From positions 10,963-74,962 of the forward strand of contig CAWCOU010000001.1 of NCBI GenBank assembly GCA_963797335.1: DNA of 64,000 nt, given 5' to 3'. This DNA is from an uncultured Gammaproteobacteria bacterium (GTDB taxonomy: Bacteria; Pseudomonadota; Gammaproteobacteria; JAURND01). Within the stretch, counting starts at the first letter, position 1. Each line of letters begins with the position of its first letter. Below the pieces are notes generated by a model. The model worked only from the letters and a program-made list of their open reading frames with translations, was not told the origin of the DNA and searched no databases. Shown here piece by piece: positions 17,861 to 52,609 of this stretch. Position numbers and translations under genes: made by a program.

Positions 17861-19240
17861 ATGACAATAGAAATCATGATAATAGAAGACATGGTGATTT
17901 TAAGATTTCGTGAAATTAAAAGAAGATGTTACTCAGTACCAATAAAACCATATTATCAGATGATCAATCAGCTCATAGATGAGTATCAGACTATTTCTGA
18001 AGTTCCCGATTCTAAAGCTAAATCTTTATTTGGTTCCATCCCTAGGAATGAGCACCCAACACGCATTTCATACCAAAACTGTAAATATCAATTACTGGTT
18101 TTAATTATCAATGAAATTCTGGAACTTGCCGACCCATTGTCTTTGTTAGCGCAACAGGCAAATCAATATCGAGAAGTCCTTTCTACGCTAATAGACACTT
18201 TGGGGGATCGTGATTTTTCAAGATTTAAATTTATCTTCCTTATCGTTATAGGAATAGTTGGATTAATTGGAAGTGGAATTTTGGGAGTTTTAACAGCAAA
18301 AGAGTCAGATAATCGAATCACAAACTCTATCTTTTCAGGTACTCCAGGATTGTTTGGTTTAGTTGGCCTTGGCTGTTTTTTTCACTTTAGGAGGCATGCT
18401 CTCGAACAGCAAGGACAAGCAGAAACGTTTATTGCTCAATTGCAACAGCTACCTCTCCATAAAATAGCATCAACTAGGTACAATGTGCGCTTGACTGACT
18501 TAGTGCATGATACCAATTTTGATATTCTACGTGTTATTGATTTGCTGCATAAAAATGAAAACCTAAGGTGCATGATACAGGCATGCTTGCAATCGGAGGA
18601 TGAGCTTCCTGAAACTGCCGCATCGAGTTCGTCAGCCAGTTTCTCTGAAGAAAAAAAATCCGTAATGCCATCCACTTTAGAACCTGGAGTCAATCAGGAT
18701 TTAGAACTTTATTTCATCAAGACTCAAGGGGAAAATATCTATGGTGGCCCTTATTGTGCGTGTTGCATTTCCACTCATATTCAAGCACAAAAAGTTCAAG
18801 GCATAACCCCCAATGATCCGCAATCTCGAAATCCAATTGTTTTTGATAGAGGAAGACCTATTTTTTACCCGTTGAACCATATTCTCAGTCAATGGGAAAA
18901 GGTTGTAAAAAAGTATCCTTTATTATTGAAGCCAGTCATTTTTTCCAGCGCTACGGAAAGTAAAGACATGAAAGTTACAACAACCCTACCAGAAGAAACA
19001 AAAGAAAATAAAGTAACTACAACCATCCCCGTAATGGTCGAAGAAGAAAACTCTACGATTCCTATCAGTGCAATTCGCACAAGTGAACACTCTGGATTAA
19101 CGAGAATACCATCACGTTCTTCCTTATTGCTTCGATTCCTGGACGCAAAGAACGCATTAAAGAATACACAAACAAACTCAGAAGATGAAAAAAACGAAAC
19201 CACAGACAATCATTATATACGCTTAGAGTCTCCAGATTGA
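17861..19240 (+). CDS. Hypothetical 2-TM protein, effector-like
   Basis: Two adjacent TM helices, CACC motif, S/T/E-rich C-terminus; AT-rich; exact start uncertain. Confidence 0.7.
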   Translation: MTIEIMIIEDMVILRFREIKRRCYSVPIKPYYQMINQLIDEYQTISEVPDSKAKSLFGSIPRNEHPTRISYQNCKYQLLVLIINEILELADPLSLLAQQANQYREVLSTLIDTLGDRDFSRFKFIFLIVIGIVGLIGSGILGVLTAKESDNRITNSIFSGTPGLFGLVGLGCFFHFRRHALEQQGQAETFIAQLQQLPLHKIASTRYNVRLTDLVHDTNFDILRVIDLLHKNENLRCMIQACLQSEDELPETAASSSSASFSEEKKSVMPSTLEPGVNQDLELYFIKTQGENIYGGPYCACCISTHIQAQKVQGITPNDPQSRNPIVFDRGRPIFYPLNHILSQWEKVVKKYPLLLKPVIFSSATESKDMKVTTTLPEETKENKVTTTIPVMVEEENSTIPISAIRTSEHSGLTRIPSRSSLLLRFLDAKNALKNTQTNSEDEKNETTDNHYIRLESPD

Positions 19241-25020: not shown

Positions 25021-25522
25021 CATAAAAAAAATGGCCCGGCAATCCATCGAAGATGGCGCTGTGACCAAAGACTATCCCTTGGATTTGGAAAAAGCATATC
25101 AGCTACTCAATGCGGCACTGGGCACCGAAATTATGTGCGTTCTACGCTATCGCCATCACCAAGTCATCGCCAAAGGAATCGACCGTCCCCAGGTCGCTGC
25201 AGAATTCGAAGAACATGCCATGGATGAAGAACGCCATATGATGATGATCGCCGAGCGAATCAATCAACTCGGCGGAAACCCCGACTTTAATCCAGCCACC
25301 GTTGCGCAACGAACGGCCACAGAATACGGCCAAGGCACTGATATACTCAAATTGATTGAAGAAGACCTGGTAGCCGAAAGAATCGCCATCATGGTCTATC
25401 GAGAAATGATAGACTGGTTCGGCACCGACGACCCCACTACCCGGCGCATGCTCGAAGAAATTCTAAAAGACGAAGAAGACCACGCCGACGATCTGGCTGA
25501 TTTATTAAACATCAAAAAATGA
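24980..25522 (+). CDS. Ferritin-like/bacterioferritin-family di-iron protein
   Basis: ALGTEIMCVLRY, DEERH, EDLVAERIA, DEEDH di-iron motifs; ATG 24980 with AGGAG SD. Confidence 0.88.
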   Translation: METSKQKKLSSLDDIKKMARQSIEDGAVTKDYPLDLEKAYQLLNAALGTEIMCVLRYRHHQVIAKGIDRPQVAAEFEEHAMDEERHMMMIAERINQLGGNPDFNPATVAQRTATEYGQGTDILKLIEEDLVAERIAIMVYREMIDWFGTDDPTTRRMLEEILKDEEDHADDLADLLNIKK

Positions 25523-25527
25523 CCCCT

Positions 25528-25702
25528 GGGTTGGGGGAGGGCGAATGGATAACGCGAGACTTTACCCTCTCCCCTAACCCTCTCCCGCGAATAGGTTTGC
25601 AGCTTTTGCCCAAACTCCTCGCGCGAGAGAGGGGGTTTACAGTGCTAATCGTTAATCCAGTGCCTACTCAGTTGACTAAAAAAGATGTGTGCATACCTTA
25701 GG
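25528..25702. mobile_element. Half copy of MITE family B (one TIR)
   Basis: Matches the reverse complement of 59233-59410; ends in a degenerate TIR ...GATGTGTGCATACCTTAGG abutting the Rpn stop codon. Confidence 0.85.
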
Positions 25703-25703
25703 C

Positions 25704-26546
25704 CTATAATTCCTCGATTTCCTCAACAGAAAGCTCAATAAGCGAAGCAATTTCTTTTTTGTCTAGACCCTTATTCAACAATTTACGCACAACTCCCTGT
25801 TTTGCATGAAGCATGCCTTCTTCCCACCCTTTTTTCTTGGCTCCATAAACCAATGTTTTTTCAATACTGACGGCATCCCAATATTTGTCATATGATGTTA
25901 ATTCGGCAGGCGTATAAGCTGATTCCTCCGCCAAATCCACCGCTTTTTTAATTTCTGGAACAGTTAACCATTCATCGGGAATCTGTTGGGATTTTTCATT
26001 TAATTCCGACATAAAACGCAACCACAAAATATGTAATTTTTTTTCTTGAATATTCTTCGCCTTAAATTTAGGCAGTTCAATAAAAATTAACTGCAAATCT
26101 TTAATTTCAGCTTTCTGTGGTTTGGCGACATTCACGATTTTATAATGATGGTACCAATCGCTGTCATCGGGCTCAAATACCGTATTAATTAATCCCAAGC
26201 CATACACAGGTCTTAATAACTCATACTGTTCTCCTTTCTCCAATTGGGTCACATAGGCTTTACTGGCATTAAATAGCATGCGTTGCATAAAACCAGTGGT
26301 CCACTGGATTTGCATTTCGACAATAAATACGCGGCCTTGTTGGTCAGTACATCGCACATCGACAACGGTATATTTGAAGCTGGGGATGCGTGGCACTTGT
26401 TCACTGGGTAGGTATTCTAGATTTTGGATCAAACCATCGTAAGGAAGAGGGAGCACGGAGTTGAGGAAGCTCTTCAACAACTCCGGGTGTTGACCAAAGA
26501 TTTTTTTAAAAACGATATCGGTTTTTGGATCAAGGTAGCGTGCCAT
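25704..26546 (-). CDS. Rpn family recombination-promoting PD-(D/E)XK nuclease/putative transposase
   Basis: YLDPKTDIVFKKIFG, VDVRCTD..GRVFIVEMQ, FIELPKF; ATG 26546 with GGAGGA SD. Confidence 0.92.
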   Translation of the reverse strand: MARYLDPKTDIVFKKIFGQHPELLKSFLNSVLPLPYDGLIQNLEYLPSEQVPRIPSFKYTVVDVRCTDQQGRVFIVEMQIQWTTGFMQRMLFNASKAYVTQLEKGEQYELLRPVYGLGLINTVFEPDDSDWYHHYKIVNVAKPQKAEIKDLQLIFIELPKFKAKNIQEKKLHILWLRFMSELNEKSQQIPDEWLTVPEIKKAVDLAEESAYTPAELTSYDKYWDAVSIEKTLVYGAKKKGWEEGMLHAKQGVVRKLLNKGLDKKEIASLIELSVEEIEEL

Positions 26547-26656
26547 AAAATCCTCCATGGGTAACCAACTAAATGATTCCCTGAGAATGTCTGGTTAGCC
26601 ATGAACTGTCAATACCGTATTTCCTGAAGCTCCCTGCACATAAAATCCGTACTTAA

Positions 26657-36168: not shown

Positions 36169-36401
36169 CTGTGAGTGAGCATTTGATTAGAGGTTAGCAC
36201 TGTAAGCCTCCTCTCCCGCGCGAGGGGCTTGAATAAAGGCACTGAACTTGTTCGCGGGAGAGGGTTGAGGAGAGGGCTAATGGATAGCGCGAGACTTTAC
36301 CCTCTCCCCTAACCCTCTCCCGCGAATAGGTTTGCAGCTTTTGCCCAAACTTCTCGCGCGGGAGAGGGAGTTTACAGTGCTAATCGTTAATCCGGTGCCT
36401 A
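36169..36401. mobile_element. MITE family B internal core lacking both TIRs
   Basis: Matches the reverse complement of ~59270-59500 with scattered substitutions. Confidence 0.85.
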
Positions 36402-36741
36402 TGGAGATATTTAGGGATGAGAGCCGCCAGCATTTCCAGGGAGTGTTTTATTTCGCATAGAGGGGCTTTCTTTCGTAGAGGAAAATCCAGCCTTTGGCGA
36501 TACGATAAATAACCCAAATCAAATCCAGAATCAGGATGATGAAGCCAACGAAAATCCAGAAGGAAATTAAGCCGAGCAGACCCCACAGCAAGCCATACCA
36601 GAACGTGCGGATTTGCCATTGGAAATGAGAGGCAAGCCAAGTGCCTTTGATGGGTTCTTTGTCCACACAATAATGCATAATGACAGCAATAATAAAAGGC
36701 AGGCCAAACACCAGGCCGGCTGCTTGTAGAATGTAAATAGT

Positions 36742-38524
<1,783 letters not shown>

Positions 38525-43745: not shown

Positions 43746-43840
43746 ACTTTAAACCGTGAGCCTGGCCTTCAGTTGTTGCTAATGAGGAAAAATTAACAGA
43801 AAATAATTCATAGTTGAACCTGGTAGCGCGGTCTAAAATA

Positions 43841-43869
43841 TCTCCTTCTCCCCTTGTGGGAGAAGGAGA
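43841..43869. repeat. Family F hairpin within the cox operon
   Basis: TCTCCTTCTCCCCTTGTGGGAGAAGGAGA. Confidence 0.8.
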
Positions 43870-43915: not shown

Positions 43916-44797
43916 ATGTCATCACATTCCAAAGGGAGTTACTACCTACCTGCGCCCAGTCATTGGCCCATCGTCGGTTCTATCGCCTTATTCTGCATCA
44001 TGTTTGGTGCAGCCAACTGGTTGCACCAAGTCTCCTACGGCCCGATATTTTTTGTCGTCGGAATTTCCCTGCTCATCTTCATGCTATTCGGCTGGTTTGC
44101 CACCGTGATTCGCGAAGGACAGCAAGGTTTATACGACAACAAACAATTAGACCGATCTTTCCGCTGGGGAATGTGTTGGTTTATTTTCTCAGAAGTCATG
44201 TTCTTCGGTGCCTTTTTCGGCACCTTATTCTATGTCCGCGAATTTTCCGTCCCCTGGCTTGCCGGAGAAGGCCATGGCGTCATGACCCATCTATTACTCT
44301 GGCCCAATTTCACAGGCGCATGGCCGGTACTACAAAACCCCAACCCAGCCGCATTCGTTGCCCCCAAAAGCGTCATGGAAACCTGGGGCCTGCCAGCATT
44401 AAACACCTTAATTTTGCTCACCAGCGGCGTGACCATCACCATCGCTCACTGGGGTATAGTCAAACACAATCGAATACAAGCATTAGTAGGCCAAGGACTA
44501 ACCGTACTACTAGGCCTATGCTTCCTGACGATGCAAGCCCACGAATACACCATTGCCTACCTAGAAAAAGGATTAACCCTAGGCTCCGGTATCTTCGGCA
44601 CCACCTTCTTCATGCTCACCGGCTTTCACGCCCTACACGTCACCATCGGCACCATCATGCTGATCACCATCTTCTTCCGCATCTATCGTCACCACTTCGA
44701 TAAACACAGCCACTTCGCCTTCGAAGCCGTCTCTTGGTATTGGCACTTCGTCGACGTCGTCTGGTTAATGCTATTTGTATTCGTATATTGGATGTAG
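43916..44797 (+). CDS. coxC: Cytochrome c oxidase subunit III
   Basis: FIFSEVMFF, TGFHALHV, WYWHFVDVVW. Confidence 0.97.
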   Translation: MSSHSKGSYYLPAPSHWPIVGSIALFCIMFGAANWLHQVSYGPIFFVVGISLLIFMLFGWFATVIREGQQGLYDNKQLDRSFRWGMCWFIFSEVMFFGAFFGTLFYVREFSVPWLAGEGHGVMTHLLLWPNFTGAWPVLQNPNPAAFVAPKSVMETWGLPALNTLILLTSGVTITIAHWGIVKHNRIQALVGQGLTVLLGLCFLTMQAHEYTIAYLEKGLTLGSGIFGTTFFMLTGFHALHVTIGTIMLITIFFRIYRHHFDKHSHFAFEAVSWYWHFVDVVWLMLFVFVYWM

Positions 44798-44817
44798 TAT
44801 GAGACCTGCCACCTTGA

Positions 44818-45112
44818 GAGCTTGTCACTAACAGAAGGGGTGGCGCGGAGGGGAGCCTTATTTTTTGCGCAGCAAAAAATGAGTACCGCAGCGACAGGAC
44901 CCCGGATGCACCTAAGCAATTAAAGGGGTCTTAAGGGGGTCAAGTCTGTTAAGGGGGTCAAGTCTGGATTTAAGCCGTATTAAAGGCAGAAATCCAGACT
45001 TGACCCTTTTTCGGGAGCTTGTCACTAACAGAAGGGGTGGCGCGGAGGGGAGCCTTATTTTTTGCGCAGCAAAAAATGAGTACCGCAGCGACAGGACCCC
45101 GGATGCACCTAA
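44818..45112. repeat. Composite: two identical 98-bp direct repeats (family D) flanking a family C hairpin with stuttered left arm
   Basis: 44818-44915 = 45015-45112; the 18-mer TTAAGGGGGTCAAGTCTG occurs twice (44931-44966); right arm 44990-45006. Confidence 0.93.
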
Positions 45113-45124
45113 CAAGAACCGCTC

Positions 45125-46012
45125 TCAAACACTTTTTTCCAAAGAAGGAACTACCACATTAGCATGAGTCAAAGGCTGATGCTTTCGCACTTTCAAATCA
45201 TGAAACTGAACCAGAAACACAGCAGCTATCCAAGGATAAATAATCGTATCCGCCAGAATATTCACCAGCACATTCGCGATAGGAAACGGTGGCGATATAA
45301 CCAAGCCTAAAACCAAATTCACCAGCTGATTAATCACAAAACCAAAAGCCAAAGGAATCAACAACACCACAAAAGTAGCCCACCAACGCCCCTTCACCAA
45401 ATAAAAACTCTGCTTCAACGACTTCACAACCGGCCAATTATCAAGAAGAATCAGCACATTGACCAAACACAAATACGTCCCCACGACAATCCACACCAAG
45501 GCCAGTACACCAATAGCACTAATCGACAGCGCTGAAGGAGAGAAAGTAGCCGTTTTAGCCACCAATGAAACCAGCAATAAAATAACGCCTATCACCAACA
45601 TAAGTATCAATAAACAAGCCAAAATCACCAAATTATTGAGAATAAAACCGCCAATCACCGGAAAGAATTTCTTCCCAGCCATTTTTAACGAGGTAATCGG
45701 AGTGGGAGCCGCAGCTGGATCAACAGCGGCCAGCGTTTGCATGCGGTGCAATATAAACGTTTCCCCGTAAATTAAAATCAGCGTACCGATGATGCTTAAA
45801 ATAAAATCAGTCGTGCTAAAAGCGTTTAATCCTTGCGCTTGAGTTGCCAATAAAGAAAAATTGCCTGCCAATTGCGGAGAAGTCAGTAACAGCAACGGCA
45901 GTAGCCAGAGTAGCTGCCAACGCCAGATACGGCTAAATGTATACTTGTACAGGCTAAAACTGTCCAATAACACGCCAGCAGGTGTTTGTGGTTCCTTCGA
46001 AAAATTAAACAT
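45125..46012 (-). CDS. Multi-pass membrane protein (YciC-like), paralog of 22916..23704
   Basis: Six or more TM segments; SLKQSFYLVKGRWWATF, FHDLKVR. Confidence 0.75.
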   Translation of the reverse strand: MFNFSKEPQTPAGVLLDSFSLYKYTFSRIWRWQLLWLLPLLLLTSPQLAGNFSLLATQAQGLNAFSTTDFILSIIGTLILIYGETFILHRMQTLAAVDPAAAPTPITSLKMAGKKFFPVIGGFILNNLVILACLLILMLVIGVILLLVSLVAKTATFSPSALSISAIGVLALVWIVVGTYLCLVNVLILLDNWPVVKSLKQSFYLVKGRWWATFVVLLIPLAFGFVINQLVNLVLGLVISPPFPIANVLVNILADTIIYPWIAAVFLVQFHDLKVRKHQPLTHANVVVPSLEKSV

Positions 46013-46041
46013 ATCTCTTCCTCTTCAATTGTCAACAGACC

Positions 46042-47343
46042 CTAGTCTGCTTTAGGGCCTTTTTTAGGGTAGATTTTCACCAACAAAATTCGTGGCCCCT
46101 TCAATTTAAGAACAACCACGTCAAATTCCTTAAAACTAACCCGTTCATCGGCATTTGGCAAGCGTTCTAGCTTCAGTAATAATAATCCAGCGATAGTGTG
46201 GGCGGAAGACTCGGGTAGCACGATATCCAAGGCTTTTTCTAATAAATAAAGCGGAGTTGTACCTTTCATCAACAGCGCACCGTCCTTGGTCAGAGACCAG
46301 TCAGGGCTGGGTTTGTGGAACTCATCTTGAATTTGGCCAAGCAGAGCTTGGAGAATATTCTCCAGTGTCACAAAGCCTATGGGTTGGCCGGTTTTTTGTT
46401 TAACGATAGCCAATTGCGTGGCGCCGCGTCGGAACCGACGGAACAACGCCAGCGCCGGCAATTCAGGATCAATACTCAACACCGGCCGAATCAATGGTCG
46501 CAATGATTGCTGATCTTGGCTGGCAAAGAAAATATCTTTGACATGAAGAATGCCGATGATTTGGCTTGGATCTGTTTCATACACGGGGTAACGGCTAAAG
46601 CGATATTCCTTCATTCGTTGCAACAGGGTTTCCGTTGGCTCGTTTAACGACAACATCACTAACTCTTCAGCGGGACGCATCAGATCAGCGATTTGTAAAT
46701 CGGCAAAATCCAAGACATTATCTAATATCTCCGCTTCTTCTTTTGCCAGCTCACCGTGTAAATGGCTGACATTGAGGATGAGCTTCAATTCTTCCGAAGA
46801 ATAAAAGCTGCTTTCATTTTCGAGTCGGTGACTGCCCAGGGATCTTAATAACAAATTGGAACTGGCGCTTAATAACCAAATGAAGGGATACATCAACCAG
46901 TAAAAATAAAAAAGAGGTAGGGCTGTCCATAGCGACATGCGTTGTGGATTGGTGATGGCCAGCGATTTAGGGGCCAATTCGCCGACGACGATGTGGACGA
47001 AGGTGATAATAAAAAAGGCAAGAAAAAAACTAACGACGGTGATGGTATTCGGAGAGGTTAAGCCTATCGAATGAAAAAAAGGTTCTAATATCTTAGCGAG
47101 GGCGGGTTCACCAATCCAACCTAAACCGAGAGAGGCTAGGGTAATGCCTAATTGGCAGGCTGAGAGTGAAGCATCCAGCTGAGAATGCACTTTCGCTAAA
47201 ATAATACCGCGAAAACCATATACGGATTTAATGGCTTCCAAACGGGTGTGCCGTAATTTGACTAGCGCAAATTCGGCAGCGACAAAAAAGCCGTTCAGTG
47301 CAATGAGCAACAATGATACAACGATCAAGACCAGATTGGTCAC
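46042..47343 (-). CDS. CNNM/HlyC-CorC family protein (DUF21 + CBS + CorC)
   Basis: LNGFFVAAEFALVK, QLGITLASLGLGWIGEP, VGELAPKS, FSRYPV. Confidence 0.93.
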   Translation of the reverse strand: MTNLVLIVVSLLLIALNGFFVAAEFALVKLRHTRLEAIKSVYGFRGIILAKVHSQLDASLSACQLGITLASLGLGWIGEPALAKILEPFFHSIGLTSPNTITVVSFFLAFFIITFVHIVVGELAPKSLAITNPQRMSLWTALPLFYFYWLMYPFIWLLSASSNLLLRSLGSHRLENESSFYSSEELKLILNVSHLHGELAKEEAEILDNVLDFADLQIADLMRPAEELVMLSLNEPTETLLQRMKEYRFSRYPVYETDPSQIIGILHVKDIFFASQDQQSLRPLIRPVLSIDPELPALALFRRFRRGATQLAIVKQKTGQPIGFVTLENILQALLGQIQDEFHKPSPDWSLTKDGALLMKGTTPLYLLEKALDIVLPESSAHTIAGLLLLKLERLPNADERVSFKEFDVVVLKLKGPRILLVKIYPKKGPKAD

Positions 47344-47373
47344 TACACGCGTCCTCGTTGCTAGGTTAACTCA

Positions 47374-47661
47374 TTAACGGCGCATACCGCGGTATGCAAC
47401 GTCTTCTTCATCGGGCACAAAAGAAGTGATGGTGGTCGCGGAATTGAAGGCTTCTTTCGTAATTAACCCAGGGTATCGCTGAGTGATTTGGCGTAATAAA
47501 TAACCACCTTCTTCTTGTAAATTTTCCTGGATACGTTTGATGGAGGGTTGGATATCGTTTAGCACATCCAAAAAGACTTTTATTTCTTCGTTGATTTTAG
47601 CCGCCAATGCTTGCCCGGCATGTTGTGGGTTTTCCGTTTTAGTTGCAAATGGATTAAACAT
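47374..47661 (-). CDS. Hypothetical protein
   Basis: 95-aa ORF co-oriented in an operon-like run; no family recognised. Confidence 0.6.
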   Translation of the reverse strand: MFNPFATKTENPQHAGQALAAKINEEIKVFLDVLNDIQPSIKRIQENLQEEGGYLLRQITQRYPGLITKEAFNSATTITSFVPDEEDVAYRGMRR

Positions 47662-47673
47662 AGCGTGACTCGA

Positions 47674-48495
47674 TTAAAGTAGTTTTTTAACAAAACGCAC
47701 TATCTCTTCCTGCTTATACGGCTCTTGTCGCCGAGTGTAATTGGAATAAATAGCTAAGTAGGTTTTTAGGCGAAAATAAGTGGTGTAATCGGGAGCCTCC
47801 ACTGAAAAAGCAGTGGGTATCTCCAATTCGAGTTCTTGATAACGCATGAGAATTTCCGACCAGGTTTCTTGATGTAGTAAGGCGGCGGTTTCTTCTTCGT
47901 TTAAAGAGATATCTATTTTCGTCAATTCATGGGGGATTTTTTCTAAATAGTGATGACGGTAGGTATCCCATTGTTGATCAAATGAGGGAATCAGTTGTTC
48001 AATTTGTTGAATTTTTTGTAATAATTCTTCTTGGTATTGTTGTAGATTTTTTTGCAGTTCCACGGTTTTTTTGCTGGCTGCTTCTAGTGCGGCGATGGAT
48101 TCTAGTAGTTCTTTTTCTTGAGCGGCATTGGAGTCAGCTAGTTTCTGGCGTAATGAAGCTAGGGTATCTTTCATTAGGCGGCGTTGGTTGTCGGCGAGTT
48201 CGATGCTGGATAGTACTTCTCTATGCACTTTGAAGGCTGAGATGTAGGCGTGCATGCTGGGTCTGATGGCTGTTTGGGGGTTTATGAGTGCTTCGTTGAT
48301 TTGGGAGTTGCTCAGCAGGTTGAACATGCTGGTGTCTAGTTGCGGTATGGTTCCTTCGGTGGGAACAGGTTTCGGGCGGGAGTACTTCCGAATAAGCGTG
48401 GAGAGGCTTTTGATCTCGCTTAAGAGGGTCCTAGCATAACTGGAGTATCCAGTGGTGGCAGGGCTTTTTTTCATAAGTAGGTATCTGACTTGCAT
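47674..48495 (-). CDS. Hypothetical coiled-coil protein
   Basis: Central heptad-rich L/E/K/Q segment. Confidence 0.7.
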   Translation of the reverse strand: MQVRYLLMKKSPATTGYSSYARTLLSEIKSLSTLIRKYSRPKPVPTEGTIPQLDTSMFNLLSNSQINEALINPQTAIRPSMHAYISAFKVHREVLSSIELADNQRRLMKDTLASLRQKLADSNAAQEKELLESIAALEAASKKTVELQKNLQQYQEELLQKIQQIEQLIPSFDQQWDTYRHHYLEKIPHELTKIDISLNEEETAALLHQETWSEILMRYQELELEIPTAFSVEAPDYTTYFRLKTYLAIYSNYTRRQEPYKQEEIVRFVKKLL

Positions 48496-48711
48496 TTAAC
48501 GTGGTTTATTTTAACATTTTTTTCGGTAATGGCGATAATTATTTAAAGAGGGGGCGGAGCCACCCTACGCATGCTATATAATGATTAACCTTTCTTAATG
48601 GAGAAGCTCAGGGGCTTGCAAGCAGCTACGCATTGGCTTAGGATACGGTATGACTGCCTTGTATAATCAATAAGTTGCCCTCTCTCATTTCGCGTCGATT
48701 AGGAACGTATT

Positions 48712-50094
48712 ATGCTAAATTGTTTTGCACATGCATCTGGCCAAGCTGGTATCCCCATTATTCCGCTTAAAGAAAAGCAGTTATCGGTTTGGGCGGAGCG
48801 GCAAACGCAGTATGTGAAGAATTGGTTGAAATCAACCGGGTATCGAGCCAAGGCTGGGGCGATTGGGCTGATATGTAATTCAGAGGGGTTGTTGGAAACG
48901 GTGTTGGTTGGCTTAAATCATGCCGAGGACTGGAATGTTTTTGGGCAATTGGCGACTCAATTGCCGGAAGGGGTTTATTTTATTGCCGAATCTTTGCCGC
49001 CACGGGCGCTTTATTTGGCTTATCTTGCGTTTGGCGCAGGTAGTTATCAATTTACTCCTTACAAAAAGGCTACTCCTTCAGGAGCGAAGCTGTTATTGCC
49101 TAAACAAGATTTGAATATTGCTTGGTTGGAAGCGGTGTTGCGGGCTACTTACTTGGTTCGAGATTTGATTAATACACCGGCTGAGGATATGACGCCTTTG
49201 GATTTGGCGGCGGTGGCGGTTGGTCTGGCTAATGAGTTCGGTGGGGTTGCTAGGGTTATTGAGGGGGATGAATTACTGACCCATAATTTTCCTGCCATCC
49301 ATGCGGTGGGTCGTGCCAGTCGTCATGTACCTTGTCTGATTGATTTTACCTGGGGCAATGTCAAGCATCCTAAAGTCACATTGGTAGGGAAGGGTATTTC
49401 CTTTGATACGGGTGGTCTCAACCTGAAGAATGCTGCCGGTATGGCATTGATGAAGAAAGACATGGGGGGGGCGGCTCATGTGCTAGGGTTGGCAGTGATT
49501 ATTATGACGCTTGGCCTGCCGGTGCGATTGCGGGTATTAATTCCTGCGGCGGAAAATGCGGTTTCTGGTGCGGCTTACCACCCGGGTGATGTGTTGATGA
49601 CTCGCAAGGGTATTACCGTGGAGGTTACTAATACCGATGCGGAGGGACGTCTCGTGCTCAGCGATGCTTTACAGGCCGCTGTTGAGGAGACTCCGGAGTT
49701 ATTAATGGATTTTGCGACGTTGACGGGGGCTTCTAAAGTGGCCTTAGGGACAGACATTGCTGGTTTATATTGCAATGATGATTTGCTGGCCCAGGAAATT
49801 GTCGGTTGTGGTGATGCAGAAAATGACCCAGTGTGGCGCATGCCACTTTACGCGCCGTATCGTAAAATGTTGGATAGTAAAATAGCGGATATCATCAATG
49901 CCCCGTCTTCCGGTTACGCTGGCGCTATTACCGCCGCGCTGTTTCTGAAAGAGTTTGTTCCAGATAGCATCCCCTGGGGTCATTTCGATATCATGGCTTG
50001 GAATGTCAGCAGTAAACCAGCAGCTCCGGAGGGTGGCGAAACGTCAGCGCTACGAGCCGTCGCTCAGTATCTATATCAACGTTACAAATCTTAG
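48712..50094 (+). CDS. M17 leucyl aminopeptidase family protein
   Basis: VGKGISFDTGG, MKKDMGGAA, NTDAEGRL, ATLTGA, HFDI. Confidence 0.95.
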   Translation: MLNCFAHASGQAGIPIIPLKEKQLSVWAERQTQYVKNWLKSTGYRAKAGAIGLICNSEGLLETVLVGLNHAEDWNVFGQLATQLPEGVYFIAESLPPRALYLAYLAFGAGSYQFTPYKKATPSGAKLLLPKQDLNIAWLEAVLRATYLVRDLINTPAEDMTPLDLAAVAVGLANEFGGVARVIEGDELLTHNFPAIHAVGRASRHVPCLIDFTWGNVKHPKVTLVGKGISFDTGGLNLKNAAGMALMKKDMGGAAHVLGLAVIIMTLGLPVRLRVLIPAAENAVSGAAYHPGDVLMTRKGITVEVTNTDAEGRLVLSDALQAAVEETPELLMDFATLTGASKVALGTDIAGLYCNDDLLAQEIVGCGDAENDPVWRMPLYAPYRKMLDSKIADIINAPSSGYAGAITAALFLKEFVPDSIPWGHFDIMAWNVSSKPAAPEGGETSALRAVAQYLYQRYKS

Positions 50095-50101
50095 TTTTGA
50101 T

Positions 50102-50136
50102 CTTATCTCCTATGCCCACAAGGGGAGAAGGATAAG
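50102..50136. repeat. Degenerate family F hairpin
   Basis: CCCACAAGGGGAGAAGG, the reverse complement of the family F core. Confidence 0.6.
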
Positions 50137-50164
50137 GATATAAAGGCTTTTATAGAGAAATCAC

Positions 50165-52609
50165 ATGACTTGGATAGATGGCCTGGCATTTATTATTCTC
50201 ATCTGGGCGCTTATTTTTCATCGCATGCCAACCAAAATTTGGCTACCCACCGTAACTGTGGCCTTATTAGCAGTGACGTTCCTCGGTCATTTGCCATTGC
50301 CGCTTCTGATAGTGAGTTGGTTAGTATTCCTTCTGATCGTCGCTGCCACACAGATCACCATGGTTCGTCAAGCCTGGCTAATCCGGCCGATGTTGCGCCG
50401 ACTGCAGAAAATCCTCCCCCCTATTAGTGCAGCGGAACGCGAAGTTGTCGAAGCCGGGGATGTCTGGTGGGAAAAAGAATTATTCTGCGGCCGCCCCGAT
50501 TGGCGCAAGCTCGCCGCCATTCCCTGTCCGACGATGACAGGAGAAGAACAGTTATTCCTAGATCAGCAAGTAGAAACACTGTGCACGCTAATAGATGATT
50601 GGCAATGCCTGAACGGCCAAACCAACGATCTGCCACCCCAGGTGTGGGATTATTTAAAAAAAGAAGGATTCTTTGGCATTAGTATCGACAAAGCTTACGG
50701 CGGTAAAGGTTTTTCTTCATTGGCGCAATCGAATATCGTCACCAAAATTGCCACTCGCAGCGTCAGCGCTGCCATTACGGTCATGGTACCCAATGCCTTA
50801 GGCCCCGCAGAATTCCTGCAGCACCACGGCACGCAAGCTCAAAAAGAGTATTACTTACCACGCCTGGCTACGGGTGTGGAGATTCCCGCCTTCGCCTTAA
50901 CGGCGCCAGAAGCAGGTAGTGATGCCAGCAATATCTCCGACAGTGGCGTTATTTGCTTACAAGAATACGAGGGCAAATCAGTGCTCGGTATTCGACTGAA
51001 TTGGTCTAAACGCTACATCACGCTCGCACCGGTGGCAACCCTACTGGGTTTGGTCGTGAAGCTTTACGATCCGGAACGTTTATTAGGAGAGCAGGTGAAG
51101 CTAGGTATTACTTTATGCTTAGTGCCCACCGCATTACCTGGGGTGGACACAGGGCAACGGCATAACTCCGCGGGATTGGCTTTTTTAAACGGACCTACCC
51201 GCGGTCAGCAGGTGTTCGTTCCTCTCGATCACATCATTGGCGGTCCGGCCATGGCTGGCAAAGGCTGGCGCATGATGATGGAAGGGTTGGCTGGTGGCCG
51301 GGGTATTTCCTTACCCGCATTGAGTTCCGCTATTGCCAAACTCTGTTATCGGATGACGGGCGCTTATGCCGTGCTGCGCCATCAGTTTTCGCAATCGATA
51401 GGGGAATTTGAAGGCGTGGCTGAACGATTGGCGCGCATCGGTGGCTTGACGTATGTCTGCGAAGCAGGGCGTTTATTCACCCTCAGTGGCATTAACCATG
51501 GCGTGAAACCGGCGTTAGCAGCAGCTATCAGTAAATACCACCTCACCGAAATGGCCAGAGTGATTATTAATGACGCTTTAGATATCCATGCCGGCCGGGG
51601 GGTGCAACTCGGGCCTAGTAATTACCTATGGCCTTTATATCAAGCTATTCCCCTCTGCATCACCGTAGAAGGAGCGAATATTTTAACGCGTAATTTAATT
51701 CTGTTTGGTCAAGGGGCGATGCGCTGTCACCCCTATATTCATGCCGAGATGTTGGCGTTGGCAGATCCTAACCCACAACAAAGTTTGCAGCAGTTTGATG
51801 GTTTGTTACAAAAGCACATCGGTTTTGCGTTGAGTAACGCGGCACGGGTTTTATTCCATGGGCTGACGGGTGGACTATTGGTTCGCAACACGATTGTGCC
51901 GCGAAAATCCCCTCACCATTATTATTTTCGACAATTGACCCGCATGAGCGCGGCCTTAGCGTTGACGGCGGATATGGTCATGATGCTATTGGGTGGGCAG
52001 TTGAAACGTAGCGAAAACATCTCAGCTCGCTTAGGTGATGTATTAAGTCAGCTCTACTTGGCTTCCGCCATTCTCAAATACGATCAGGATTATCACCACC
52101 CAGCAACGGATTTACCCTTTTTGCATTGGGGCCTGCAACAATCGTTACATGCCGTAGAACAGGCGTTTTTAACCTTGTTTGCCAATTTAAAGCCGAATTG
52201 GTTAGCGCGATTACTACGCACAATGATCTTCCCCTGGGGGCAAGCCTATAGCCGACCCCGTGATGAATTAAGTCAAGCCGTAGCCACGACGATGATGCAA
52301 CCCGACAGCGAGCGCGATCGTTTCACTGCTCATTGCTTTATAAAGCAGAGCGAAGAAGACCTCTGCGGACGAATGGAGCTGGCATTTAAGGCCTGGCGAG
52401 AAACAGCGCTGCAGCTAAAAAAACTATCGAACGCCATTAGCCGCGGTGACATTCAGGCAGATTTGTCTTTGTCCCAACAATTAGCACAGGCGGAACAAAT
52501 AGGCATCCTGACCTCGGATGAGCTACACTATTTACAACGTAGTTTTACCCTGCGCTGGAATGCGCTACAGGTCGACGAATTTGAGGAACACCGACATGAT
52601 GAACGATAA
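50165..52609 (+). CDS. fadE: Long-form acyl-CoA dehydrogenase
   Basis: ISAAEREVVEAGDVWWE, FALTAPEAGSDA, GRGISLP, ITVEGANILTR. Confidence 0.93.
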   Translation: MTWIDGLAFIILIWALIFHRMPTKIWLPTVTVALLAVTFLGHLPLPLLIVSWLVFLLIVAATQITMVRQAWLIRPMLRRLQKILPPISAAEREVVEAGDVWWEKELFCGRPDWRKLAAIPCPTMTGEEQLFLDQQVETLCTLIDDWQCLNGQTNDLPPQVWDYLKKEGFFGISIDKAYGGKGFSSLAQSNIVTKIATRSVSAAITVMVPNALGPAEFLQHHGTQAQKEYYLPRLATGVEIPAFALTAPEAGSDASNISDSGVICLQEYEGKSVLGIRLNWSKRYITLAPVATLLGLVVKLYDPERLLGEQVKLGITLCLVPTALPGVDTGQRHNSAGLAFLNGPTRGQQVFVPLDHIIGGPAMAGKGWRMMMEGLAGGRGISLPALSSAIAKLCYRMTGAYAVLRHQFSQSIGEFEGVAERLARIGGLTYVCEAGRLFTLSGINHGVKPALAAAISKYHLTEMARVIINDALDIHAGRGVQLGPSNYLWPLYQAIPLCITVEGANILTRNLILFGQGAMRCHPYIHAEMLALADPNPQQSLQQFDGLLQKHIGFALSNAARVLFHGLTGGLLVRNTIVPRKSPHHYYFRQLTRMSAALALTADMVMMLLGGQLKRSENISARLGDVLSQLYLASAILKYDQDYHHPATDLPFLHWGLQQSLHAVEQAFLTLFANLKPNWLARLLRTMIFPWGQAYSRPRDELSQAVATTMMQPDSERDRFTAHCFIKQSEEDLCGRMELAFKAWRETALQLKKLSNAISRGDIQADLSLSQQLAQAEQIGILTSDELHYLQRSFTLRWNALQVDEFEEHRHDER

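Follow-up and report, generated by a model that had tools for sequence, protein, structure and literature searches.

In a 64-kb window from an uncultured gammaproteobacterium near Coxiellaceae/Legionellales (the window being the whole stretch of DNA that was analysed), two divergent genes, one for an M17 leucyl aminopeptidase family protein and one for a 273-residue protein that we call CC273, share a tract of about 1.75 kb (positions 47995 to 49734) over which the + strand is rich in G and T at synonymous sites. A preliminary description of this DNA had listed the tract as the third of several "halos" of strand-biased composition, and we keep that term (halo 3). The best explanation is that halo 3 represents the in-situ footprint of a local, strand-asymmetric mutation pressure that has acted in the studied lineage only. 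The bias is strand-specific, restricted to synonymous sites, of the transition type, peculiar to one lineage and not driven by the inserts that now occupy the halo centres. We regard it as a new form of a known process, strand-asymmetric mutation pressure; full-text searches of the literature returned no account of kb-scale, near-saturating patches of synonymous strand skew in bacterial chromosomes.

Results

The interval 47500-50300 was read, open reading frames (ORFs) were called and base composition was taken per codon position. Keto skew is (G+T-A-C)/n in 400-nt windows of the + strand, K3 is the skew at third codon positions (profiled in 150-nt windows), and tract limits are those of a three-state hidden Markov model (HMM) on third codon positions. 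Gene models are ORF-based and agree with the L081 gene calls, except that CC273 starts later there (266 versus 273 aa). CC273 (47674..48495, minus strand) has no Pfam or NCBIfam match; it heads the minus-strand run CC273-s95-CNNM-DUF7847 and has orthologues in both relatives used for comparison, L082 (Logan SRR24524766) and L083 (GCA_035546635.1). The M17 gene (48712..50094, plus strand) is recognised by Pfam (PF00883, PF21337) and NCBIfam, and its best database match is 81% identical (P0002), the next ones lying at 66% and below.

Halo 3 is supported by the HMM, by the K3 profile and by codon resampling. According to the HMM, 76% of its 508 third positions are G or T (binomial p ~3e-31). Keto skew culminates at +0.375 (48001-48400), the window-wide standard deviation being 0.096, and stays at or above +0.13 throughout 47401 to 50000. 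Taken per gene, K3 amounts to +0.36 for CC273 and +0.41 for M17, with most of the 52 predicted genes lying within about ±0.1. Followed along the DNA, K3 climbs from ~47750, tops at ~48250 (peak of +0.80 at 48175-48324), dips to +0.14 to +0.38 by both gene starts, holds at +0.44 to +0.64 over 48775-49750 and is gone by ~50000, so that the first ~340 of the 460 M17 codons carry the G/T-ending preference. At their maxima within the tract, T/(T+C) and G/(G+A) reach 0.95 and 0.97, respectively.

CC273 and M17 have opposite codon preferences in the coding sense and identical ones on the DNA strand. The 52 G- or T-ending codons out of 61 degenerate ones that the preliminary description had counted at 49081-49269 of M17 are confirmed, against a baseline of 48.4% in non-halo genes (p = 3e-9), and the A/C-ending codons that it reported for the first ~170 codons of CC273 are found in 131 of 165 degenerate codons. 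The + strand is indeed G/T-rich on both sides, that is, we are dealing with a property of the DNA strand at synonymous sites across two divergent genes; a mismatch between the sign of the skew and the coding strand of the annotated genes is seen in halos 2, 3 and 4 alike. The reversal of sign to the left of halo 3, on which the exclusion of replichore skew had been based, is equally real: halo 2 (44188..45734, HMM), over the convergent genes COX3 and DUF7847, has the opposite sign, with 20% G/T on the + strand and K3 down to -0.96, and ends 2.3 kb from halo 3. Since the signs alternate within 2-3 kb, the skew is not replichore skew.

Amino-acid composition alone, which had been named as a possible source, does not account for the skew. 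With both proteins held fixed and synonymous codons drawn from the window's own usage, resampling of 47950-49800 predicts +0.082 ± 0.012 against an observed value of +0.233 (z = 12.2); a control gene treated likewise gave z = -1.1. Ordinary codon usage is ruled out by the opposite coding-sense bias of CC273 and M17.

The gene order COX1-CtaG-COX3 / DUF7847-CNNM-s95-CC273 / M17-FadE-FadA-FadB is kept in L082 and L083, which are 81% and 66% relatives, respectively, by M17 identity. At the syntenic loci of both, the same HMM finds no tract, and K3 of the L082 orthologues is +0.02 for M17 and +0.04 for CC273. The skew is therefore unusual, and it arose once the studied lineage had separated from L082. 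A wider HMM scan, covering 84 loci of other genomes with 415,424 third positions (~1.25 Mb of coding sequence), brought up nothing comparable, only short, weaker and mostly single-gene segments. The most similar-looking candidate among them, the Thiorhodospira locus L058, was discarded, its skew merely tracking gene strand.

The comparison with L082 also informs on the kind of substitution. At 2-fold sites of the tract with a conserved amino acid, A in L082 faces G in the window 40 times and the reverse is found 4 times, and C in L082 faces T 34 times, the reverse 11 times; halo 2 gives the mirror image of these changes on the + strand. The 4-fold sites on the + strand comprise 85 G, 57 T, 22 A and 25 C. 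At 4-fold sites, the purine/pyrimidine (R/Y) mismatch to L082 is 0.373 ± 0.027 in halos 2 and 3 together and 0.371 ± 0.015 in controls, the expectation being ~0.44 had the shift taken the A->T and C->G route. Because this mismatch is unchanged, the shift did not take the route of A->T or C->G; on the G/T-rich strand it ran by way of the transitions A->G and C->T. The synonymous first positions of Leu codons have shifted in the same direction in four gene segments out of four, and the amino-acid replacements of the studied lineage lean the expected way (19 versus 9). Synonymous divergence is slightly raised overall (2-fold mismatch of 0.396 versus 0.339). The pattern fits a strong change in mutational bias filtered by selection, not a hypermutation burst.

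The intergenic centre

The preliminary description had placed the centre of halo 3 in the divergent intergenic region (48496..48711), with a degenerate REP (repetitive extragenic palindrome) stub, GGGGCGGAGCCACCCTAC, at 48551..48568 of the + strand. Both positions stand, with the correction that the centre itself is weakly skewed (+0.11); it contains blocks conserved with L082. The stub consists of a weak GC hairpin followed by CCCTACG. The search for an insert present or absent in related strains, which had been advised, was rewarded: alignment with L082 reveals ~55 nt (48555..48609, + strand), covering most of the stub, and ~10 nt around 48664-48673 that are present here and absent there. 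The ~55-nt segment has a skew of 0.00. The region also bears the best sigma-70-like promoter match for M17 (48511..48539, + strand, TTAACA-17-GATAAT, 10/12), a consensus match only, and a minus-strand promoter match (48535-48508) overlaps it.

Compared with the window by blastn, 48496-48711 has no significant repeat match (best E = 0.16, in a coding region), and the 9-10-mers common to the centre and the repeats have E = 10-40. Folded as DNA, 48540-48625 forms no significant hairpin (z = +0.36 versus shuffles), and the centre folded as 5' UTR RNA gives z = +1.1 versus shuffles. No Rfam match and no tRNA match was obtained for the centre, and no inverted repeat was reported there. Two hairpin elements, at 56034-56057 and 58470-58500, have 10-11 nt in common with the stub, and GCC[AC]CCCTACG follows a GC hairpin at 48558-48569, 56046-56057 and 58489-58500, each time on the + strand and each time at a skew feature; these sites may mark a small REP family. 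Allowing up to 2 mismatches, the stub 12-mer has 4 matches in the window versus 3.2 expected, which is not above chance. As a polarity signal, the stub motif was rejected: it keeps one orientation while the local skew patterns are +/+, -/- and +/-, and a motif that keeps its orientation under differing signs cannot set polarity.

Motif discovery across the three strong centres, oriented by skew sign as had been recommended, delivered a T-run and chance-level 11-mers only; no motif is shared at the tract "starts", and no oligomer is enriched on the G/T-rich strand beyond composition. The idea that a short cis signal sets the polarity is thus left without support by the motif, fold, repeat and Rfam tests, in a sample of three strong halos that gives low power for any shared cis determinant, and no polarity determinant was found in the centre, which had been held to be the best place to look for a minimal one. 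Of the companion idea of a scar left by a lost element, the presence of lineage-specific DNA at the centre is borne out; the scar itself is not supported, this DNA being unskewed and matching no repeat.

Other tracts, repeats and neighbouring genes

Halo 4 (58557..60768, HMM) also has the sign opposite to that of halo 3 (20% G/T on the + strand) and covers the genes for isopentenyl diphosphate (IPP) isomerase and HMG-CoA reductase. It cuts off sharply at a hairpin pair (58470-58545), beyond which lies a small tract of opposite sign. This small tract is one of three minor ones found by the HMM, at 58280-58433 (75% G/T at third positions, abutting halo 4 across the hairpin pair), 55706-56365 (26%) and 25159-25749 (28%). 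Over 44-61 kb the series of signs reads -, +, -, +, -, and most genes have K3 near 0. Three of the 21 intergenic regions of at least 100 nt carry a strong two-sided halo, and another 12.5 kb of sequence on either side of the window, in flanks of 5 and 7 kb, adds no strong tract to the list.

The centre of halo 2 holds young miniature inverted-repeat transposable elements (MITEs) at 44818-45112. Outside halo 3, the large repeats at the halo centres show no skew, the copy of MITE B in halo 4 has essentially no private substitutions and the two 98-nt repeats of halo 2 are identical; judged by these features, the central repeats are younger than the halos around them. Moreover, the same repeat families occur without halos at 1400-1536, 16078-16259 and 36169-36405, and L083 carries an E-type hairpin in the very intergenic region between CC273 and M17, yet no halo. 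On the simplest reading the central repeats do not cause the halos; if repeats and halos are linked at all, exposed DNA may attract insertions.

At least five families of palindromic MITE/REP-like repeats populate the intergenic regions and are often nested; halo 2 has them as D-C-D, and halo 4 combines B with A. Family A is found at 1400-1536, 59560-59693, 16233-16259 and 59720-59751, and a search of the genome and JGI metagenome collections gave no exact match to a 23-nt core of it; family B at 25528-25704, 36169-36405 and 59231-59532; family C at 884-972 and 44954-45013; and family D at 44818-44915 and 45015-45112 (100% identical). Family E comprises the hairpins at 16078-16108, 43836-43869 and 50106-50132, the last of which lies on the minus strand just past the M17 stop and is an inverted copy of 43843-43869 at the far end of halo 2. 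A gene for an Rpn-family PD-(D/E)XK recombination-promoting nuclease or putative transposase (25704-26558, minus strand) borders on a copy of MITE B and on one of the minor tracts; its closest relatives in the databases are 76% identical, no nearer paralogue being found. A tandem array of a 96-nt unit (36748-37118, copies 97-100% identical) lies upstream of, and enters the 5' end of, the seryl-tRNA synthetase ORF (37082-38479, minus strand).

Inside the tracts, ORFs of 83-166 aa at 47982-48233 (+), 49575-49841 (-), 45459-45770 (+) and 59802-60302 (-) are probably spurious, because the A/C-rich strand is short of the T, and the G/T-rich strand of the A, that stop codons need. Conserved proteins outside any Pfam or NCBIfam family include, besides CC273, the 95-aa s95 and others of 325, 382 and 459 aa, and are located at 47374-48495 (-), 56330-58433 (+) and 17861-19240 (+); CC273 and s95 adjoin M17 in L082 and L083 too. 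Halo 4 overlies the isomerase gene and the 5' portion of the reductase gene of a complete mevalonate cluster (58557-63943, and L086), consisting of the divergent IPP isomerase, HMG-CoA reductase and three GHMP-kinase-family genes that include a diphosphomevalonate decarboxylase. A 1055-aa AMP-binding/PP-binding/aminotransferase protein is encoded downstream of this cluster. Finally, a 1950-aa protein (8377-14229, plus strand) has C-terminal Sel1 and TPR repeats and an N-terminal part of ~1300 aa without Pfam match; Sel1/TPR proteins are typical of host-associated Legionellales-like bacteria.

Discussion

The question arises as to what process could impose such a bias on a single strand. Our tentative proposal, to which we give a probability of roughly 30%, is that the + strand has been recurrently single-stranded by way of a long, R-loop-prone rightward transcript, with the resulting deamination filtered by selection. 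This transcript would start within the 5' half of CC273, in antisense, cross the intergenic region and become the M17 mRNA; a layout in which an antisense RNA leads into the divergent gene is an "excludon"-type arrangement. While the + strand of the ~1.75-kb tract is exposed, its adenines and cytosines would deaminate, producing A->G and C->T, and purifying selection would leave the change almost only at synonymous sites. As the displaced strand loses C and gains G, its RNA would become more R-loop-prone and less Rho-sensitive, and the skew might in this manner reinforce itself.

Of this scheme, single-strandedness, deamination and the transcript are what we infer. Hydrolytic deamination of single-stranded DNA, which turns amino into keto bases, is favoured because A->G and C->T have built up together on a single strand, through transitions. 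As in asymmetry of the mitochondrial type, T/(T+C) and G/(G+A) are both up, with no extra R/Y mismatch at 4-fold sites, and deamination is also the accepted reason why the H strand of animal mitochondrial DNA is G/T-rich (PMC3269014). A transcript would account for tracts of kb size whose sign varies and which are confined to one lineage, and for the edge of halo 4 at a terminator. Read along the G/T-rich strand, each strong tract has a promoter-like match near its upstream edge, located at 46035-46008 (minus strand, TTGACA-16-TATGTT, 10/12) for halo 2, at 60737-60709 (minus strand, 9/12) for halo 4 and, for halo 3, at a weak extended -10-like site, TGTAATAAT (47996..48030, plus strand, 8/12 plus TG); and a hairpin stands at or beyond the downstream end of each (43843-43869, 50106-50132 and 58470-58545). 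This placement of promoters and hairpins is a lead, not evidence.

Several observations weigh against this proposal. In two of the three scans the promoter-like matches are no more frequent than expected by chance, and the one for halo 3 is weak; the skew climbs over ~450 nt with no step at a start site; and its magnitude is, to our knowledge, far above any known bacterial transcription-associated skew. The three strong and two of the minor tracts straddle intergenic regions of at least 180 nt, with midpoints offset by 0-260 nt, a centring that a polar transcript does not predict and that a centre-nucleated process does. The ancestral intergenic DNA of halo 3, through which such a transcript would run, is only weakly skewed, with +0.28 over 53 nt and +0.09 over 99 nt; constraint could explain the dip at the centre, given the blocks conserved with L082. 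Lastly, synonymous sites are near saturation relative to L082, so that the direction of change is not polarisable per site. Polarising with L082 and L083 jointly was abandoned, since the sites at which both outgroups agree are biased towards constrained ones, and with both difficulties only the R/Y test is informative.

Put in more general terms, the skew might record persistent strand-specific domains of single-stranded DNA (ssDNA), as R-loops or D-loops, or locally targeted deamination, at particular operon boundaries, a reading that we consider unlikely. If it were so, ssDNA domains would imprint asymmetry of the mitochondrial type on ~2-kb patches of a chromosome that is unskewed elsewhere and may attract ssDNA-dependent mobile repeats. 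Control of local mutation rate or spectrum of such a kind has no bacterial description in the literature searched.

The centring of the tracts is better explained by a nick in the minus strand of the intergenic region that is widened both ways into a gap, exposing the + strand for ~1 kb on each side, where deamination would then produce a single sign, and made by a REP/MITE-associated HUH or PD-(D/E)XK nuclease or by another nickase. Such a process, a mechanistic form of the cis-signal and lost-element ideas of the preliminary description, would agree with the rough centring of three strong and two minor tracts on intergenic regions of at least 180 nt, with the fact that these regions are repeat insertion sites, with the lineage-specific DNA and its REP-like stub at the centre of halo 3, and with the Rpn-family PD-(D/E)XK nuclease gene, which has a MITE B copy and a minor tract as neighbours. 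Against it, the centres share no oriented motif, the stub motif keeps one orientation across three sign patterns, and the central repeats are unskewed, young and represented elsewhere by family members without halos; L083 has a hairpin in the same intergenic region and no halo. Furthermore, the skew dips at the centres instead of peaking, and a nick or gap does not predict that halo 4 should end so sharply at 58.5 kb. All in all, with no sequence signal to support it, we hold a nick or gap to be an unlikely, though serious, contender.

Repeated local resynthesis of one strand, by strand displacement or long-patch repair that escapes mismatch repair, would enrich the new strand in G and T, as G.T mispairs dominate polymerase errors. 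Its products would match those of deamination in their transition spectrum and in their strand specificity, and halos 2 and 3 can be viewed as a minus/plus pair around an unskewed 2.3 kb, like leading strands diverging from an origin. We nevertheless find it improbable: 45.7-48.0 kb holds ordinary CNNM and small genes and nothing that would initiate replication or repair, the stretch separating the two halos shows no skew, no plus-sign partner of halo 4 lies within 8 kb rightward of it, and the proteins show no acceleration of rate.

It could also be argued that strand composition itself is selected, for instance as C-poor, Rho-resistant RNA in one direction and A/C-rich, unstructured, Rho-sensitive RNA in the other, the purpose being control of antisense transcription at operon boundaries. 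The tracts do lie at operon boundaries and leave amino-acid sequences untouched. Selection would, however, have to be effective at hundreds of synonymous sites, no oligomer is enriched beyond composition, relatives with the same operons are without the tract, and the amino-acid replacements drift in the same direction, as mutation bias predicts; we judge this explanation very improbable.

An imported patch, in the form of a 2-kb recombination from an extremely skewed donor or of a hyper-edited single-stranded intermediate, would suit the discrete, kb-scale tract boundaries, and is scarcely credible for the rest. M17 is 79% identical to L082 inside the tract and 84% outside, and its identity to the outgroup L083 (0.65) equals that between L082 and L083 (0.65); CC273, COX3 and DUF7847 likewise show ordinary relationships, synteny is conserved, and codon positions 1 and 2, both of which one-step hyper-editing would have altered, are unaffected. 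A horizontally acquired island was discarded on the same grounds, identity to L082 and L083 inside the tract matching that outside with synteny kept. Lineage-specific amino-acid changes are not in excess (21 versus 19 for M17, 11 versus 12 for CC273) and, together with the normal relationships, this argues for an in-situ bias and not for import. That the halo is an artefact or a trivial effect of sequencing or assembly error, amino acids or codon usage has a negligible probability, an independent Logan assembly (run ERR11523675) being 100% identical over 14,206 nt (45083 to 59288), codon position being respected, and ORFs and conserved proteins being intact.

Strand skew in bacteria is commonly read as a record of replication along the whole chromosome, to which transcription contributes little. 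In the tracts of the window, K3 reaches 0.8-0.96 in 2-kb patches of alternating sign, within housekeeping genes whose proteins evolve normally. If recurrent single-strandedness were indeed the source, local mutation spectra could vary many-fold within a few kb, and the places of stable R-loops, D-loops or gaps could be read from the sequence itself, even for an organism that is not in culture. From a practical point of view, inferring inversions from GC skew gene by gene would misread such patches, and gene finders are misled, the skew deleting stop codons on both strands and creating spurious overlapping ORFs. The co-location of tracts and repeat insertions further offers a testable link between ssDNA exposure and REP/MITE-type targeting.

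Comparison with known systems

As regards REP/BIME elements and MITEs, with their HUH/RAYT enzymes, the likeness is that the other halo centres hold palindromic repeats and that the stub resembles the 3' half of the REP-like hairpin at 58470-58500. Unlike in those systems, the stub is neither a significant repeat copy nor a significant hairpin, and the repeats of the window postdate the skew and are found in places that lack it as well; we know of no base-composition halo around REPs. Targeted hypermutation, as in diversity-generating retroelements (DGRs), AID and APOBEC kataegis, likewise produces localised, strand-coordinated changes over ~1-2 kb. Here, however, no protein is diversified and amino-acid change is not accelerated, A and C are both affected whereas DGRs act on A only and AID/APOBEC on C only, and the outcome is a long-term shift in composition and not a cluster of mutations. 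Pfam finds no reverse transcriptase or deaminase domain in the 40 largest of the 52 predicted genes, and the window contains no DGR template/variable repeat pair.

Transcription-associated asymmetry takes the form, in E. coli, of C->T changes of the strand that is not transcribed and, in mammalian genes, of T>A and G>C on the sense strand, and R-loop zones carry GC skew. Halo 3 would share with it the G/T-rich non-template strand and the kb scale, and a hairpin resembling a terminator forms the end of one tract or more. It departs from it in that the sign ignores the annotated genes (CC273 is A/C-rich in sense), so that an unannotated antisense or long 5' transcript must be postulated, and in a magnitude far larger than bacterial reports. 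Replication skew in bacteria is similar in that G>C and T>A fall on one strand, the leading strand being G/T-rich; here, by contrast, the sign flips within 2-3 kb and not only at origin and terminus, K3 is 0.8-0.96 versus ~0 elsewhere in the window, and the skew is absent from syntenic relatives. Mitochondrial DNA differs as well, for here we see ~2-kb patches of a bacterial chromosome, of alternating sign and with no origin in sight, for which single-strandedness is our inference. In mitochondria the asymmetry is attributed to the time that the H strand spends single-stranded. The resemblance to halo 3 is that a single strand gains both A->G and C->T changes, mainly at synonymous sites because the proteins are constrained, and that the silent-site asymmetry is of similar size, with ~75-95% keto bases on one strand.

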